This document shows positions 28,257 through 34,683 of a stretch of DNA of 64,000 nt, piece after piece. The notes under the pieces were generated by a model, which was not told the DNA's origin, did no database searches, and saw only the letters and a list, made by a program, of their open reading frames with translations. The stretch lies in the sequence record NC_052663.1; one strand, 5' to 3'. Position 1 is the stretch's first letter, and the number at the start of each line of letters is the position of its first letter. The position numbers and the translations under genes are program-made. This DNA comes from Escherichia phage VEcB.

Positions 28257-28289
28257 ACAAAAAGGAGCCAATAGGCTCCTTTTCTTTTA
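28257..28289. terminator. bidirectional rho-independent terminator at convergence of the two modules
   Basis: 7 bp stem AGGAGCC/GGCTCCT (loop AATA) flanked by A-rich 5' and T-rich 3' tracts, so it is a U-tract terminator on either strand; lies between convergent stops at 28256 and 28292. Confidence 0.65.
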
Positions 28290-28291
28290 TC

Positions 28292-28723
28292 TTAATCAGT
28301 GAAAATTACGCTCACATCTTCTTTAGAGAAGAGTTTATGATCTTCACCTTTTGTCTCAAGAGTTTCATACAGGTTAAGAAGTTCTGAAACATCTTTCTCT
28401 ACTAGTTTCTTCAATGTTGCAATTTTCTGTTTGCGATTTTTAATACGTTCAGCTACAACCTTACGTTGGTATCCGGCAGTACGATAACCTGAGAAAGTTA
28501 CACCAGTGAGACTTGCAGTTACAGGATCGTAATGACGTTCAATCTGAAATTTATTAAAAGGTACAGCGTCATCACGAATAATCTTACCGCCATTACTTAC
28601 TTGACGAAGACCAGTAACTTGTTCTAGTCGTGCCATAGAAATCTTTGGAGACAGACCAGAGTCCAGGTTCATACCGTTGTTAATCAGTGCTTTCAGGGTG
28701 ATTTTGCTGTTCAGTGTACTCAT
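28292..28723 (-). CDS. hypothetical protein
   Basis: 143 aa; ATG at 28723 with GGAGGA RBS 8 nt upstream; start overlaps the last 44 nt of the methyltransferase gene. Confidence 0.4.
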   Translation of the reverse strand: MSTLNSKITLKALINNGMNLDSGLSPKISMARLEQVTGLRQVSNGGKIIRDDAVPFNKFQIERHYDPVTASLTGVTFSGYRTAGYQRKVVAERIKNRKQKIATLKKLVEKDVSELLNLYETLETKGEDHKLFSKEDVSVIFTD

Positions 28724-29411
28724 TTAGTCGTTCCTCCGCTTGCTTAAAAATATTTACATCGGCTTCACAGCCTAAGTATTCTCTACCTGTTAAAAGTGCC
28801 GCAACTTGTGTTGTTGCACTCCCAGAGAAGAAGTCTAAGACTACATCTCCTTCGTTGGTGTGTATATTAATAAGGTCACAAAACAAAGTCAAGTGTTTTT
28901 GTGTTGGATGAAAACGATCTGCTCCTTGATAGATAGGATACTCAAACACACCCTTATGGTAGGAAGCATTGAAGGTTGGCTTCGAACCTTTAACACAAAC
29001 AATAGCCATCTCTTTAGCGTTACTAAGATAGTTAACACCACTGTTGATGGGTACAGGGTTTGTTTTAATCCATTCGATAGTACGGAACATACGAAAACCA
29101 AGCGGTTCAAGGATTTCACGTAGCTCCTGGATCTTCCAGATATCATACCAAACTATGCAAGTACCACCTTTTCTAAGCACCCTGTAGGCTTCTTTGAATA
29201 CTTCTTTAAAGTAAGGAATATCTACAACATCCCAATCACCAAAGTTGTAAGATACACGGAATCTATCCGTATCTTTTCCAGTAGGCTCTCCAGATTGAAA
29301 ATTTGTGTCACGAGAAATAGCATATGGTGGGTCAGTAAGAATCAAATCTACACTATTGCTTTCGAGGGTTTGCAGGTAGTTTAATGCGGTGTTGTTTACA
29401 AATTCGCTCAT
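28680..29411 (-). CDS. DNA methyltransferase, beta-class amino-methyltransferase (N6-adenine or N4-cytosine)
   Basis: 243 aa; catalytic motif IV LILTDPPY near the N-terminus and SAM-binding motif I FFSGSATT near the C-terminus (IV before I is beta-class order); RBS AAGGAG. Confidence 0.8.
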   Translation of the reverse strand: MSEFVNNTALNYLQTLESNSVDLILTDPPYAISRDTNFQSGEPTGKDTDRFRVSYNFGDWDVVDIPYFKEVFKEAYRVLRKGGTCIVWYDIWKIQELREILEPLGFRMFRTIEWIKTNPVPINSGVNYLSNAKEMAIVCVKGSKPTFNASYHKGVFEYPIYQGADRFHPTQKHLTLFCDLINIHTNEGDVVLDFFSGSATTQVAALLTGREYLGCEADVNIFKQAEERLNEYTEQQNHPESTD

Positions 29412-29420
29412 TATATCTCC

Positions 29421-29449
29421 TTCAAAGAAAAGGAGCCGTTAGGCTCCTT
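29421..29449 (-). terminator. rho-independent terminator (minus strand) downstream of the SSB-like gene
   Basis: 8 bp stem AGGAGCC/GGCTCCT, followed on the minus strand by TTCTTTG; sits between the SSB stop and the methyltransferase RBS. Confidence 0.5.
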
Positions 29450-29471: not shown

Positions 29472-30419
29472 TTAGAAACAGTGCAGGAAGTTTCGACCAT
29501 ACTGCAAACCAATAGGAGCAAATGGGATATCATCATCGAAATCTTGAACAACAGGTTCTGGTTCTTTCGGTGCTGGCTCTTTCTTCTCTACTTTTTTAGT
29601 TTCTTTCTTAACTTCTTGTACTGGGGTAGACATTCCACGGATAGCAGCAGCTACTTTATCAGACAAAGCAAGAACTTCACGAGCAGCTTCAATAATCTCT
29701 TCTGCCGTTACAGTTTTACCTGTATGATCACGACAAGCGTTAAGAATTGCGTGTCCAACTGAAGCACCAAGATCATAGTCAGTCACATCAACGCCACGAT
29801 CTTTAGCAATTTCTGCTTTCAGAGTAACAGTTGCAGATTGTACCACACCAGCCAAGTCGAAAGCATCACCTTTCACACCAGCACGTAGAAGCTCCAGAGC
29901 GCCATTTACAGCGTGTCCTGTTTCAATCCCTACAGTATCACGTTTTTTGTAGTTAGGTTTGCTACCTTCGTTATTAGATGGCTTATTTCCACCTTTTGAA
30001 GAAGATTGTGCTTGCTGAACACCTTCTGTTGAAAGAACAGTGATTTTACCTTTAGAGGAGTTGTAGTATGTTTTGCCATTCCATTCGGAAGGTTTAACAT
30101 CCATAGTTACTTCTACACCTTTTTCGATAGTAATCCACTTATCACCATCTTTAACTTGCAGGTTTTCATGTTCTGGGTGCAGTTTAACTTCACCTAGGCT
30201 AACCCAAACACCTTTATCATCAGCACCAGCACCTTTCTCTTTAATAAGCAGAGATGCTTTGTGAGTTGATTCAATTTTCTTATCTGGCTGACCTGCAACC
30301 TTAATATAAGAGACTTTCATTTCATCAAACTTATCCAGTTTGACATATTCAACGATACCTTCAGCCCAGAATGCTTCTTTTTTAGTACGACGGTCGATTT
30401 CAGAATTAATTACTGGCAT
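29472..30419 (-). CDS. putative single-stranded DNA-binding protein with SSB-type acidic C-terminal tip
   Basis: 315 aa; extreme C-terminus DFDDDIPF preceded by Lys/Glu/Pro-rich linker, as in bacterial SSB C-tails; N-terminal domain not obviously canonical OB-SSB. Confidence 0.5.
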   Translation of the reverse strand: MPVINSEIDRRTKKEAFWAEGIVEYVKLDKFDEMKVSYIKVAGQPDKKIESTHKASLLIKEKGAGADDKGVWVSLGEVKLHPEHENLQVKDGDKWITIEKGVEVTMDVKPSEWNGKTYYNSSKGKITVLSTEGVQQAQSSSKGGNKPSNNEGSKPNYKKRDTVGIETGHAVNGALELLRAGVKGDAFDLAGVVQSATVTLKAEIAKDRGVDVTDYDLGASVGHAILNACRDHTGKTVTAEEIIEAAREVLALSDKVAAAIRGMSTPVQEVKKETKKVEKKEPAPKEPEPVVQDFDDDIPFAPIGLQYGRNFLHCF

Positions 30420-30435
30420 AAATTCTCCTCTATAA

Positions 30436-30834
30436 TTACATTACTTTAACACAAAACTCTCGTAAAAGAGTAGCGTCAGTTTCTTCCAACAGGTATTTAC
30501 CAAGACCAATACCAAATCCTATTTCACCACTTTCGAAATGGAGGATTTGTATCTTTTCTCCACCAAGGTTAATTACTTTTGCTTTTCCAGGATTATCCAA
30601 AACATCTCGTATTGTATCCTGTAGTAACATAAGTTCACGTTTTGTGATAGTGGTTTCAGATATCTCTTTGTTTTCTACTCTCACTGTTAAACGATTGTAT
30701 CCACCAAAGAGACATAGTATTTGAATAAAAAAGGTATTATCTTGAGGTTCAACATCTTTTTTAGTTAGCTCAAGACGATTAGTTTCTCTACTATAGAACG
30801 TCTCGACTAAGATTTTAGAACGATTATCTGTCAT
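30436..30834 (-). CDS. hypothetical protein
   Basis: 132 aa ORF with ATG and GAGGA-like RBS. Confidence 0.35.
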   Translation of the reverse strand: MTDNRSKILVETFYSRETNRLELTKKDVEPQDNTFFIQILCLFGGYNRLTVRVENKEISETTITKRELMLLQDTIRDVLDNPGKAKVINLGGEKIQILHFESGEIGFGIGLGKYLLEETDATLLREFCVKVM

Positions 30835-30877
30835 TCAAGTCCTCATAATAACACATAATTATAATGTTTGTCAACAC

Positions 30878-31492
30878 TTAAATTTTAAATTCTTCGTTGT
30901 TAAATGAATCCAGTGTACGTACTTCTGGTTCTTTGGGAATGAAAACGTCTTTTACAAAGCGGAACATAGGGAAACGTTCTGCCATTTTACGGACGTGTGC
31001 TTCTTTACCTGTGTATCGGTGATTAATAGTACAAATATTAGTTTTCAGTGCAAATTCAAAATCTGGATGATATACATAATTTTGACCATCCCAGTAACAC
31101 AAGCAAATAGCTACATCAAAGTTCCATACGATTTCACTGCGTACACCTTCTTCCATGATCATAAAGTTAAACTTAAGATCTTTATAGTATGCTTCAAATA
31201 CCCATTTCAAATGTGGTAGTTCGGCATAAGTGTGTTCTGTTTGCTTAGTAATTTGTTTAACATTACGTGCACCAACACCCAACATCAAAAATTTCTCTAC
31301 TAATACAAGTGTATTGTGGTTAGGCATACGCAAGTAAATGTCAATATCTTGCGCAGGTTTCTCTAATCGCCAGTCACGTACAGCGCCGCCAGCTACAATT
31401 GCAAACGGATCTACCAGTTGGCACATACGTAATACTTCTAAAGCTCGTACTTTTTGATCTTCAATATTCATATTTTCTCCTATCGTGTCCAC
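30878..31492 (-). CDS. polymerase-beta-type nucleotidyltransferase, CCA-adding-enzyme-like head domain
   Basis: 204 aa; motif FAIVAGGAVRDWRLEKPAQDIDIYL (GG-x12-DxD) closely resembles the catalytic head of class II tRNA nucleotidyltransferases; no HD domain present. Confidence 0.5.
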   Translation of the reverse strand: MDTIGENMNIEDQKVRALEVLRMCQLVDPFAIVAGGAVRDWRLEKPAQDIDIYLRMPNHNTLVLVEKFLMLGVGARNVKQITKQTEHTYAELPHLKWVFEAYYKDLKFNFMIMEEGVRSEIVWNFDVAICLCYWDGQNYVYHPDFEFALKTNICTINHRYTGKEAHVRKMAERFPMFRFVKDVFIPKEPEVRTLDSFNNEEFKI

Positions 31493-32076
31493 TCTTTGTG
31501 TTGTTCTACATGCTCAAGCATTTCATTATATAGTGCTTTAAGATGTGGAACAACTCTTTCATCTTCAGTTTCAAAGAATTTTGTAAGCTGTTCTGCCTTA
31601 GCCTTCAACCAACAAAGATGCGCTTCAATTTCAGTATTAAAACGTCCCAGTGTTATAACACGTCCATCACGTTGAATATGGGCTTTATACTTTTTACGAT
31701 CTTTTTCGTAACTACATCCTACCATAGTCCCATGAGATCTTTTACTTACTCTATAAGCTAAGAACTTGTTAAGATCTCCTGTTACTAAAAGACAGGTATC
31801 GGGAGAGTAAACTCTCCCTCCTATAATATCTTTATCAAGTTCTAAGTTTTCCCAGTTATCCCAAGTTTGCAACCAAGAGTAGAAATTGGAGAACAGTTTC
31901 CATTCTTCACAAACCGTCACCCCATTATAACAAGGATCACGTTCTTGTTGACAAGGGGAGTAACACCTCCCCAACATAGCCATCCATTTCATATAATGCG
32001 GCGTTAGTTTCTTACTACCAGGTAGCGTACTCTCGCCTTCCAAATCATTAATACCTTCACCATATACGGTAAGCAT
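31480..32076 (-). CDS. HNH-family homing endonuclease (free-standing)
   Basis: 198 aa; YNGVTVCEEW...F..F..W pattern and Cys/His content typical of phage HNH endonucleases; located directly upstream of the DNA polymerase gene. Confidence 0.55.
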   Translation of the reverse strand: MLTVYGEGINDLEGESTLPGSKKLTPHYMKWMAMLGRCYSPCQQERDPCYNGVTVCEEWKLFSNFYSWLQTWDNWENLELDKDIIGGRVYSPDTCLLVTGDLNKFLAYRVSKRSHGTMVGCSYEKDRKKYKAHIQRDGRVITLGRFNTEIEAHLCWLKAKAEQLTKFFETEDERVVPHLKALYNEMLEHVEQHKEWTR

Positions 32077-32103: not shown

Positions 32104-34683
32104 TCAGTGACAAGTTGACCATGAACTACCAACATCGTAACCAGCAGTGAGAGGTACATTAAGATTGTAATACTCACCAGCTTTATTAACAGCGATAGAT
32201 GCTAATTCTCCAGCACGACTGTAGGCTGTAAACCAACCACCTTTCGGAGATTCATGTACGTTAGCCCAAATCTTGCCAGTACGTTTCTCTTCCTCTTCTT
32301 TCCAGGCATTAACCTTATCCAAACATTCTTTATCAATTTTCTTTTGTTCTTCTGGATCATCAACTTGAGTCCAACCTAAAGATTCTTTAGAGAACCATTT
32401 AAAATGCACCAGATCACGAGTTACTTCAAGCTGTGCTTCATCGTGATATGCAATCATTTGTTGAACGAATGACTTATTTTTCCAGTCATCAACAAAAAAG
32501 TCAACAGCTAATCCTTCTTCTTCGATAAGATCGTCGTAGATAACCATTGCTCTTTTTGCACAAATAACACCACCACTCTGGAACAGAGAGTTAAGTATTG
32601 CGTGTGCAGATCGTGTAGGTACTTTCCTACCATCAATACCAAGAATGTATTTCTTACCTGTTTTAACCCAAAAATCATGCAGACGTTCTTTAAGAAGCGC
32701 AAGAGGTTTTGCAGCTTCCCAGAAAGCATCGTATACAAGCTGTCCTGTATACATATCACTACCTATAGTTTTTGCTACTTTTGCAGCTTGAGCACCATAA
32801 GTAATACCATACTTAACAGATTTAGCAGGGCTTCGTTCAAACTTACGACCAATAGTGTCAGAAATACGTCGAGCCATCATTGTATGAACATCATTAGGTT
32901 TTTCCAATAATAGAGCATTACAATATTCATGTGGTTCCTGCTCGTACCGCCAACAGTAGTGTGATTCTATTTTTGCCTCAAGAGAATCAAAGTCATAACC
33001 AATTTGGAAGTATTTTGGAACTTCTACACCAAATAAGTTACGCATTTCATATCCGTACAGAGATGTTACACGTGGGATATTTGCTACTAACCTATGTTTC
33101 ATACGAGACGTAGCTGCATCACACGTTGCAGCAGGAGTCGGTATACGACCATCAGCCCTTACTGCCGCCAGATAACCTTTATCGTAATCCTCTTCATCCT
33201 CTTCCCAATCAGCACCACCGCCTAGAATAGAGTTTCTACGATGTTTATACGTAAGATACTGCACAATCTGCGTAGCATAAGGAAACTTTTCACCTAGTGC
33301 TTCCAAGTTAGGACAAATATCCTTCTCTTGCCCTTTTGTAAAGGAAGGGTTAGTAAGCACCTTAACACCACGACCTTTAGCTTTAGCAATACGATCTCTT
33401 AGTTTCCATTCCAAAGTTTCTGGTGTGCACTCCAGATGATCACATCTATCCTGGCAGAAGTTAGATGCTAATGTTTGATCAACATAGTCACGAATAGCTT
33501 TCTCCATTTGTGCTTCATCTTTCTTAATCTTAGTGCCAGATTTAAGAGTGATATCTTTATCTTTATATTCAGATGGACTCCAACCTAAACCAACTAACCA
33601 ATTTTTAATATGTGTAGTGTCGTCTAAAGTAGCAGGTACTGTAGGATCACAAATAGGTTCTTCTGCTGGAATAGGCAGTTTAAACTCTTTACCTAATGCA
33701 AATAACCACCAACCATCTTCTTTTTGTACAAGTTCACCAGAATGTTTCTCTGCAAACTTTATCATGTTACTTGAAGGTTCACCATTCTTTTTAAACTGTA
33801 GTTTAGGTGGAATGAATGATTTCAAATAACCTTTAGTAGCAGGTTTAGGAGGTAGCACAGGTTCTGCCTCTAAACGACATGCTTCCATTCGAGCATCCAG
33901 ATCACGAATATTATCTTCTGCTTGCTTCATATTGAAAGCAAAGCCACGGTGCTCTTGACGTGTAATAATATCAGCTACACGTTGTTCTAAGTTAAATGGT
34001 TCAGACCACTTATTATAATCACCCCACTCTTCCATCAAATAACGGAACACTGCGGTGTTAGCTTTGTTATCGTAAATACAGTAATACAGCATATCTGCTG
34101 CAAATGTTTTAAATCTTTCAGTTTCAGGGATGTTTTTTCTAAAATCAATTTTAACATCCCCTCCAGCTTTCTTAGATAACTCTGCCAGACTATGACCACC
34201 GAAGCGATCAGGGTTTAGTGTCTTACTTAAGATCATAGTATCACAAATTTCAATGTTACTATTACCCCAAGTATTGTACTTAATACTGTAGTTGAGTTTA
34301 AAAAATAATTTAATTGCCAGTAAGTCAAAGTTAATGATGTTATGTCCAACTACTTTGGTAATTTTATAGTTTGAATTACCTTTAAATTTACCTGTTCCAT
34401 TTACAAAATCAGGAAAATCTTTAAGAGGGAAATGGGTATATTCTAAATGCTCATATTCCTCCAGTCGGTATTCATACTTTCCGTCAGTCTCAATATACGG
34501 ACGACCATCGAAAAGATATTTATCACCATCATGGAAAGCAATAATCTCTCCAGTATCATGACTTTCGCACACAATACAGTGCATTGCAAAACTATCTTTT
34601 AAACGATATGGACTTGCCAAGTAATCTACACTTTCGTCATTAAGCAAGTTGTTACTTTCAATGTCGAAAGTAAAAGCTCCCAT
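32104..34683 (-). CDS. DNA polymerase, family A (T7 gp5-like) with 3'-5' exonuclease domain
   Basis: 859 aa; Exo I FDIESNNL; motif A DFDSLEAKIESH; motif B RSPAKSVKYGITYG; motif C YHDE; RBS GGAGGG before ATG. Confidence 0.85.
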   Translation of the reverse strand: MGAFTFDIESNNLLNDESVDYLASPYRLKDSFAMHCIVCESHDTGEIIAFHDGDKYLFDGRPYIETDGKYEYRLEEYEHLEYTHFPLKDFPDFVNGTGKFKGNSNYKITKVVGHNIINFDLLAIKLFFKLNYSIKYNTWGNSNIEICDTMILSKTLNPDRFGGHSLAELSKKAGGDVKIDFRKNIPETERFKTFAADMLYYCIYDNKANTAVFRYLMEEWGDYNKWSEPFNLEQRVADIITRQEHRGFAFNMKQAEDNIRDLDARMEACRLEAEPVLPPKPATKGYLKSFIPPKLQFKKNGEPSSNMIKFAEKHSGELVQKEDGWWLFALGKEFKLPIPAEEPICDPTVPATLDDTTHIKNWLVGLGWSPSEYKDKDITLKSGTKIKKDEAQMEKAIRDYVDQTLASNFCQDRCDHLECTPETLEWKLRDRIAKAKGRGVKVLTNPSFTKGQEKDICPNLEALGEKFPYATQIVQYLTYKHRRNSILGGGADWEEDEEDYDKGYLAAVRADGRIPTPAATCDAATSRMKHRLVANIPRVTSLYGYEMRNLFGVEVPKYFQIGYDFDSLEAKIESHYCWRYEQEPHEYCNALLLEKPNDVHTMMARRISDTIGRKFERSPAKSVKYGITYGAQAAKVAKTIGSDMYTGQLVYDAFWEAAKPLALLKERLHDFWVKTGKKYILGIDGRKVPTRSAHAILNSLFQSGGVICAKRAMVIYDDLIEEEGLAVDFFVDDWKNKSFVQQMIAYHDEAQLEVTRDLVHFKWFSKESLGWTQVDDPEEQKKIDKECLDKVNAWKEEEEKRTGKIWANVHESPKGGWFTAYSRAGELASIAVNKAGEYYNLNVPLTAGYDVGSSWSTCH

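Follow-up and report, generated by a model that had tools for sequence, protein, structure and literature searches.

An SSB-like protein of a phi92-like phage carries the host SSB tip motif internally, ahead of a conserved C-terminal extension

The window, by which we mean the whole 64,000-nucleotide stretch of Escherichia phage VEcB (NC_052663.1) analysed here, belongs to a phi92-like myovirus (Justusliebigvirus, Stephanstirmvirinae) and contains, within its replication module, a gene for an SSB-like protein located just downstream of the DNA polymerase and helicase genes. The first-pass annotation of this DNA had reported the ORF, and its limits, strand and length are confirmed exactly, with a ribosome-binding site upstream. 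The gene and its flanking signals are as follows.

29472..30419, minus strand: whole ORF of the SSB-like protein (315 aa plus stop codon), equivalent to Phi92_gp156 and a member of PHROG 4477
30425..30431, minus strand: ribosome-binding site AGAGGAG, 5 nt upstream of the ATG, read from the sequence
30845..30874, minus strand: sigma-70-like promoter TTGACA-18-TATTAT, with 11/12 consensus matches and a TG extension; a consensus match only
29430..29449, minus strand: intrinsic-terminator-like hairpin, 22 nt past the stop codon of the SSB-like gene
28259..28284: second copy of the terminator-like hairpin, beyond the methyltransferase cassette

The ORF is real and conserved. Its 948 nt of DNA are at least 99% identical to 14 GenBank phage records, in which the counterpart is Phi92_gp156, and a PHROG profile search gives a full-length match of the protein to phrog_4477 (E 1.9e-101), the profile stopping exactly at residue 300 of the window protein. 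The homologue set comprises 98 clusters, and the gene is conserved across the Stephanstirmvirinae and Vequintavirinae; most GenBank records label the homologues as hypothetical and a few as SSB. The same-strand order in the replication block is helicase, endonuclease, DNA polymerase (32104..34683), HNH gene, nucleotidyltransferase, a conserved 132-aa ORF (30436..30834) and the SSB-like gene. The sigma-70-like promoter is placed upstream of the last two, which probably form one transcription unit, and the SSB-like gene appears to be read from this sigma-70-type promoter. The next gene, an N6/N4 DNA methyltransferase, lies behind the terminator.

The protein is composed of two predicted domains and two disordered linkers, followed by the tip motif and a short extension.

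30021..30419, minus strand: N-terminal all-beta OB-fold domain (residues 1-133), predicted; putative ssDNA-binding module
29940..30020, minus strand: inter-domain linker (residues 134-160), low-complexity and disordered in the AlphaFold2 model
29634..29939, minus strand: conserved four-helix domain (residues 161-262) with an invariant D161 and two G-H-A-x-N motifs
29544..29633, minus strand: Lys/Glu/Pro-rich intrinsically disordered linker (residues 263-292), from sequence and the AlphaFold2 model
29520..29543, minus strand: SSB-Ct (tip) motif DFDDDIPF (residues 293-300), the same as that of the host SSB but internal
29475..29519, minus strand: post-tip extension APIGLQYGRNFLHCF (residues 301-315), of the AP[IV]GL class defined below
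29498..29500, minus strand: out-of-frame ATG in the Tyr-Gly codons of the extension, opening an 11-codon stub (MVETSCTVSNS*)

The AlphaFold2 model (80 homologues) has pLDDT values above 90 for the two domains, and the predicted structure of the N-terminal domain is an OB fold of the ssDNA-binding class. At the level of sequence, no homology of this domain to SSBs is detected by Pfam, NCBIfam, a PDB profile search or hhalign: a Pfam search of the window protein finds no domain match, so that PF00436 is not recognised, TIGR00621 scores 13.7 bits against a cutoff of 54 and aligns with the tail only, and hhalign of the N-terminal domain against 73 canonical SSB OB domains gives a probability of 1.6%. 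A BFVD fold search matches uncharacterised family members only. The first-pass annotation had described the N-terminal 200 aa as unlike a canonical OB-fold SSB and had proposed structure prediction as the check; the description stands for the sequence, and the prediction returns an OB domain, so that "atypical" does not apply to the predicted fold. The Lys/Glu/Pro-rich linker that it placed ahead of the tip is also found, at residues ~263-292, and is predicted to be disordered. D161 does not vary among the 41 sequences of alignment A1 and is at least 90% conserved among the 80 of alignment A2. The four-helix domain is probably an oligomerisation or partner interface, a role suggested by the genetic data on the relative Bas52_0087, which point to the helical domain. 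Relatives of the rV5 type (~400 aa) have an extra beta domain at the position of the residue 134-160 linker.

The C-terminal tip of SSB is a hub that recruits more than a dozen bacterial genome-maintenance proteins. The pockets that receive it have a hydrophobic cavity for the terminal Phe, a basic lip anchoring the alpha-carboxyl and a basic ridge for the Asp residues, and the alpha-carboxyl contact is among the most important in SSB-Ct docking (PMC10164576). The DFDDDIPF octapeptide of the window protein matches the last eight residues of E. coli SSB exactly, and a comparison of the family profile with solved structures matches SSB tails only (7f2n and 1eqq; E 4e-5 and 9e-5, respectively). 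The motif is conserved in the 98 homologue clusters and is therefore no chance match; some relatives carry a longer match to E. coli SSB (PPMDFDDDIPF), and among the ORFs of the 64-kb window this is the sole SSB-type tip.

DFDDDIPF had originally been taken as the C-terminus of the protein. The host-identical motif is indeed there, but its terminal position is not: DDDIPF occupies residues 295-300, and a further 15 residues, APIGLQYGRNFLHCF, precede the stop codon in place of an acidic SSB-Ct with a free carboxylate at the extreme C-terminus. The proposal that a C-terminal tip recruits host SSB partners is not supported as worded for the window phage, and because the tip is internal, a simple tip-recruitment model cannot be assumed for this allele. 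The more general part of the proposal, that this is an SSB-like phage protein mimicking host SSB, fares better, with the predicted OB fold, the location in the replication module, the host-identical acidic tip and a preprint on Bas52_0087 (described below) all in its favour.

We define an AP[IV]GL class of extensions, 14-17 residues long in total, in which Ala-Pro comes right after ...IPF, the core reads G-L-x-[YF] and the chain ends on a hydrophobic residue. The window extension belongs to this class and agrees with a tail alignment of 15 sequences (A3), where G16, L17 and Y19 never vary; an identical peptide is present in ZCKP1 and P0032. Within the family, extensions of 14-17 residues are found in 21 of the 98 homologue clusters (~20%), with the consensus AP[IV]GLQY[GA]x[NH]x[IL][HY][AC]h; one of the remaining clusters has a single extra Ser, and the others (~80%) end at ...IPF or a close variant. 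On the family tree the extended alleles do not group together but fall into at least 10 separate clades, frequently with a tip-only allele as sister. AlphaFold2 models the extension as disordered (pLDDT ~50), and the structure therefore gives no hint of its function.

Two further ideas were considered and set aside. Recoding by frameshift or readthrough to give a tip-terminated product was rejected, with no slippery heptamer seen by eye at the F-A junction and neither alternative frame showing a stop close by in the stretches inspected. A beta-clamp (QL[SD]LF) or PIP-box motif within the extension was rejected on a misfit of the anchor positions, judged by eye. The extension, the most unusual feature of the protein, had been overlooked in the first-pass annotation.

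Codon comparisons indicate that purifying selection preserves the peptide encoded by the extension. A comparison of 33 different DNA versions of the 15-codon class gives a pN/pS of 0.38 when they are read in the peptide frame, whereas the two alternative frames give 1.28 and 1.47; for the tip codons ahead of the extension the value is 0.06. The extension APVTLPFPRHAIHAI is encoded by six different DNA versions, and by our own count the extension DNAs of the window and ZCKP1 show six synonymous and no non-synonymous differences. These ratios and the synonymous-only differences imply that the extension is maintained as a peptide and that the tip is still constrained. Since DDDIPF is highly conserved in capped alleles, the tip presumably still works in some way, and "blocked" is perhaps too simple a word for it.

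The same tail and extension are also found on other SSBs, including P0098 (a PHROG 7364 SSB), the PHROG 44 SSB of siphovirus ACG-M12, and many canonical SSB fragments in Proteus, Providencia, E. coli, Salmonella and Klebsiella assemblies; all 120 matches listed for a 45-aa tail profile were proteins of at most 86 aa, and these counts are not prevalence estimates. The DDIPF-AP junction, searched as a DNA pattern in IMG/VR, is present in at least 120 viral contigs, and among the matches listed, 89 of 120 junction proteins have ordinary SSB OB domains (PF00436). The extensions among the matches listed include an AP[IV][GT]L[PQM][YF]...h class (n=58; e.g. APVTLPFPRHAIHAI and APIGLPYPRHAIYVI), an APLHHLAGA type (n=28) and an APEWR type (n=9), the remainder being assorted short hydrophobic ends. 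In bacterial genomes the AP[IV][GT]L class corresponds to Enterobacterales, APLHHLAGA to Pseudomonas and APEWR to Rhizobiales, as scored only on matches that have an acidic tail and no more than 20 aa of extension, the junction pattern otherwise giving many chance matches in unrelated taxa. The bacterial loci inspected are prophage recombination modules.

P. putida prophage: ERF-YqaJ-SSB, with extended SSB
Providencia prophage: RecT-SSB, with extended SSB
E. coli prophage: SSB-Abc2, with extended SSB
Proteus prophage locus: extended SSB

The canonical phage and prophage SSBs with extensions (APVTLPFPRHAIHAI, APIGLPYPRHAIYVI, APLHHLAGA and APEWR) resemble the window protein in having a host-type tip followed by Ala-Pro and a short, mostly hydrophobic peptide, but differ in having PF00436 OB folds and in belonging to temperate-phage ERF, RecT or YqaJ recombination modules rather than to a lytic myovirus replication module. 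The extension is a portable element, found on SSB scaffolds that are unrelated to one another, and clear homology links the Enterobacterales class to the extension in the window.

A subset of the extended alleles is associated with endonuclease genes. Within Phapecoctavirus, the tip-only ESCO13 and the extended ZCKP1 are 97% identical up to the last DDDIPF codon, after which ZCKP1 has an insertion of ~480 bp that comprises the extension with its stop codon and the gene for an HNH-type endonuclease (PHROG 2340); the two sequences are homologous again from the terminator onwards. The ZCKP1 endonuclease starts at an ATG that lies out of frame within the Tyr-Gly codons of the extension, and the start codon of the EndoVII-type endonuclease (PHROG 1035) of rV5-like phages likewise lies inside the extension; in these phages the extended alleles have the endonuclease and the DDIPF-ending alleles do not. 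Relatives of the ZCKP1 enzyme are located directly after SSB genes in four unrelated phages (ACG-M12, mEp021, Skarpretter and C130_2), which suggests that SSB 3' ends are where this endonuclease family homes. Pfam gives no match for the adjacent endonucleases, and PHROGs names them endonuclease or endonuclease VII.

Phage T4 has a comparable arrangement, with the free-standing homing endonuclease segG beside gene 32. The free-standing endonucleases at phage SSB genes are HNH or EndoVII-type with a shared zinc-ribbon N-terminus, and are present or absent between near-identical phages, as homing elements are. The window differs from these loci in having the extension and the embedded start codon only, with the 11-codon stub in place of an endonuclease cassette at the 3' end of the SSB-like gene. 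We had considered the MVETSC... stub as proof of endonuclease loss in the phi92 lineage and have withdrawn this, as the stub follows from the identical extension DNA.

Genetic data are available for one member of the family. BASEL phage Bas52 is phage RudolfGeigy, and bas52_0087 (QXV84166.1) encodes an rV5-type, 408-aa member of the PHROG 4477 family. According to a 2026 preprint, Bas52_0087 is a predicted SSB-like protein that has two OB folds and ends in an FDDDIPF "C-tip", and it is genetically required for triggering the DRT10 (UG17) reverse-transcriptase defence; escape mutants of Bas52 have D252V or Y351C in this protein, escapers are point mutants only, the SSB partner ExoI (SbcB) modulates DRT10, and DRT10 restricts both the Vequintavirinae and the Stephanstirmvirinae, the latter given at subfamily level (bioRxiv 10.64898/2026.04.29.721553). 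The window protein aligns with Bas52_0087 and Bas50_0088, with D252 of Bas52 corresponding to the family-invariant D161 and Y351 to A257, both in the helical domain. Because Bas52_0087 belongs to the family, the genetic evidence ties the family to ssDNA metabolism.

Bas52_0087 and the window protein have in common an OB domain, a helical domain with the invariant Asp, a disordered tail and FDDDIPF. Bas52_0087 is ~408 aa in length with an inserted second beta domain and ends exactly at ...DDDIPF, whereas the window protein is of the 315-aa short type and has the post-tip extension. Extended alleles are not mentioned in the accessible part of the preprint (bioRxiv 10.64898/2026.04.29.721553). 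The BASEL Stephanstirmvirinae carry capped alleles, and since DRT10 is described there as restricting this subfamily, the cap does not obviously abolish the DRT10 phenotype. Together, the data support naming PHROG 4477 "SSB-like", as the SSB-like protein of the phage; an SSB-like label with a host-type tip is already known for the family from some GenBank annotations and from the 2026 preprint.

Compared with E. coli SSB and the PF00436 and TIGR00621 families, the window protein shares an OB fold (predicted here), a disordered Pro-rich linker and DFDDDIPF, but its OB domain is without detectable sequence homology, it has an extra conserved four-helix domain, and its tip is internal under 15 residues, such that the free alpha-carboxylate for partner pockets is absent. 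Phage T7 gp2.5, T4 gp32 and the HK620 SSB are OB-fold ssDNA binders with acidic, aromatic-ended C-termini that recruit partners, and in all three, unlike in the window protein, the chain ends with the functional aromatic residue. To our knowledge, none of the three has been described with a conserved post-tip peptide. Sak4 depends on the last six residues of the HK620 SSB (PMC5928155).

We favour the interpretation, with a probability of roughly 0.6, that the gene encodes a phage SSB-like protein with a copy of the host tip beneath a portable, selected cap that has spread with homing endonucleases and alters partner choice. The OB domain would coat phage ssDNA, as its modelled fold suggests, and the helical domain would assemble the protein or contact a partner. 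In uncapped alleles, with the tip as the true C-terminus, the tail could plausibly dock host SSB-interacting proteins such as ExoI (SbcB). The cap would remove the free alpha-carboxylate of the terminal Phe and so change the partners that the tail engages; canonical carboxylate-dependent docking of host partners would be weakened or lost in the capped allele. The extension may in addition provide a second contact that is specific to the host clade, or a signal for stability. In the myovirus group the extension would spread by gene conversion with free-standing homing endonucleases that target SSB 3' ends; the phi92 lineage has the extension without the endonuclease. Conservation of the tip under the cap, together with the restriction of Stephanstirmvirinae by DRT10 described in the preprint, argues against a pure "off switch".

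A neutral origin, in which the extension has no function and is left behind by, or hitchhikes with, a homing-endonuclease cassette that inserted where the SSB-like gene stops, would account for the endonuclease start codon within the extension in ZCKP1, ACG-M12 and rV5-like phages, for the extension and endonuclease forming a single indel relative to tip-only relatives with flanks at least 97% identical, and for the same out-of-frame ATG and 11-codon stub being kept in the window. The stub, however, is not independent evidence of endonuclease loss, as identical extension DNA entails the same alternative frame; an endonuclease is located downstream in only 1 of 120 DDIPF-AP viral loci among the matches listed, the extended SSBs of prophages are followed by Abc2 or nothing comparable, purifying selection acts in the extension's own frame and not in the endonuclease frame, and the length is kept at 14-17 residues across deep divergence. 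On the frequency of the endonuclease, the prophage loci and the peptide-frame selection we reject membership of an HNH cassette as a general explanation of the extension; the neutral by-product reading is largely refuted in that general form, and we regard it as very improbable for this gene. The two elements also occur apart, with the extension but no endonuclease in GAP31, K54lambda1.1.1 and the window, and an endonuclease after a tip-only allele in K54_rec2. Because of this separation and the scarcity of endonucleases at the listed loci, the extension does not look like a cassette by-product; our reading of the sequences is that it would be an independent feature of the SSB, co-converted by the endonucleases when they move.

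The extension might instead add a function rather than mask the tip, as a second linear motif for a clade-conserved host protein or as a degradation or remodelling signal (a ClpXP/ClpAP-type hydrophobic degron), and this we consider somewhat unlikely. The extension classes track the host clade and not the phage type or SSB scaffold, the same class recurs on SSBs from phages whose replication or recombination machinery is unrelated, and the tip motif is conserved alongside the extension, all as expected of an added motif; the C-termini are hydrophobic or small (...HAIHAI, ...AIYVI, ...LHCF, ...ALYA, ...LAGA), which we take to resemble known C-terminal degrons. Such a motif is nevertheless not recognisable by eye as a beta-clamp (QL[SD]LF) or PIP-box consensus, AlphaFold2 gives the extension no structure, and the shortest classes (APEWR, APCM), which do not seem long enough to hold a specific motif, are better fitted by a simple cap. 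It is doubtful, too, that the protein is an adaptor or decoy on an OB scaffold (an RPA32/STN1-like OB plus helical arrangement) that sequesters or redirects host SSB partners such as ExoI, and not a replicative SSB. The preprint proposes competition with SbcB (bioRxiv 10.64898/2026.04.29.721553), and in our alignment the DRT10 escape mutations fall in the helical domain and not the OB domain, in line with such a role. The structural matches behind this idea are weak, though, the gene is located among core replication genes and is conserved in both subfamilies, no other SSB-type tip was found in the window ORFs, and DRT10 escapers are, in the same text, point mutants only, as expected for an essential gene.

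Returning to the interpretation that we prefer, of a host-type tip under a selected cap, the presence of a conserved, selected peptide over the tip carboxylate on several unrelated scaffolds suggests that phages tune or gate the recruitment of host partners. More tentatively, it is possible that post-tip extensions are a general, unrecognised regulatory device, in which a host-clade-specific cap rewires the host proteins (ExoI, RecQ, PriA, Pol III chi) acting on phage ssDNA or times SSB stability, and endonucleases shuttle capped and uncapped alleles. If so, phage populations would have a switchable tip state, perhaps affecting their sensing by defences such as DRT10. The capped tip also bears on how DRT10, retrons and other defences that sense phage SSBs are triggered. 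A search of full-text literature for junction peptides and related terms, in an incomplete corpus, found no description of a capped tip; the capped tip, as a widespread, selected and host-clade-specific feature on several scaffolds, and its shuttling by SSB-targeting endonucleases appear to be new. SSB 3' ends are also identified here as a putative homing site for a phage endonuclease family. Natural capped and uncapped alleles are available for comparison among the BASEL phages (tip-only in Bas52 and Bas53, capped in Bas50 and Bas54). For annotation, the statement that a protein "ends in DDDIPF" needs checking against the real stop codon.

The SSB-like protein of phage VEcB contains a predicted four-helix domain, and its gene lies among several genes transcribed in the same direction.

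Features in and around the SSB-like gene (coordinates, strand, description)
28259..29449, minus: cassette of methyltransferase gene, 143-aa ORF and flanking hairpins
28292..28723, minus: 143-aa ORF, function not assigned (phrog_20244)
28680..29411, minus: N6/N4 DNA methyltransferase gene
29634..29939, minus: helical domain of the SSB-like protein (residues 161-262)
30436..30834, minus: 132-aa ORF, function not assigned (phrog_16560)
31480..32076, minus: second free-standing HNH endonuclease gene (phrog_953, E 8.5e-74)

Within the helical domain a G-H-A-x-N motif occurs twice (residues 168-172 and 222-226), and D161, T197, K201 and Y215-D216 are also near-invariant. Residue conservation this high suggests that the domain has a specific site, for binding or for catalysis, and is not simply a helix bundle for oligomerisation. 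The 132-aa ORF directly upstream of the SSB-like gene is kept in phi92-like and Phapecoctavirus phages; a sigma-70-like promoter (30874..30845) is probably common to both genes, and the ORF product is a candidate partner of the SSB-like protein.

The methyltransferase cassette has the SSB-like gene on one side and the convergent tail genes on the other, and a copy of one terminator hairpin stands at each of its ends (29449..29430 and 28284..28259). It is missing from the Phapecoctavirus relatives ESCO13 and ZCKP1 and looks like a moron-type insertion. The second HNH gene, located between the nucleotidyltransferase and DNA polymerase genes, is probably another mobile insertion, because ESCO13 and ZCKP1 carry two to three small annotated ORFs at this position instead.

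In other phages, endonuclease genes adjoin SSB genes directly (L003 4992-5399, L004 4600-5223, L007 4691-5116 and L008 1561-1902, in each locus's own coordinates). Pfam does not recognise the products of these four genes, which have in common an N-terminal CxxC...CxxC zinc-ribbon module; their nuclease bodies differ, being either PHROG 2340 'endonuclease' or PHROG 1035 'endonuclease VII'. Since a common N-terminus is joined to different nuclease bodies, the zinc-ribbon is suggested to be the part by which all of them target the DNA of SSB 3′ ends.

Many GenBank records, of the MG0656xx series (H9-H12, H27, H40, H59 and others), are titled 'Campylobacter phage' with host C. jejuni. Their SSB-like gene is ~97-100% identical, at the DNA or protein level, to that of E. 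coli phages (phi92-like, rV5-like and Phapecoctavirus), and the records probably reflect wrong host labels or contaminated samples. In a Proteus prophage (L012 2695-3231), two ORFs are called for one extended SSB gene, an 82-aa piece with the PF00436 match and a 76-aa piece with the tail; this points either to a gene that is split or frameshifted or to a wrong ORF call. The same may lie behind several of the short entries in NCBI named 'partial SSB'.
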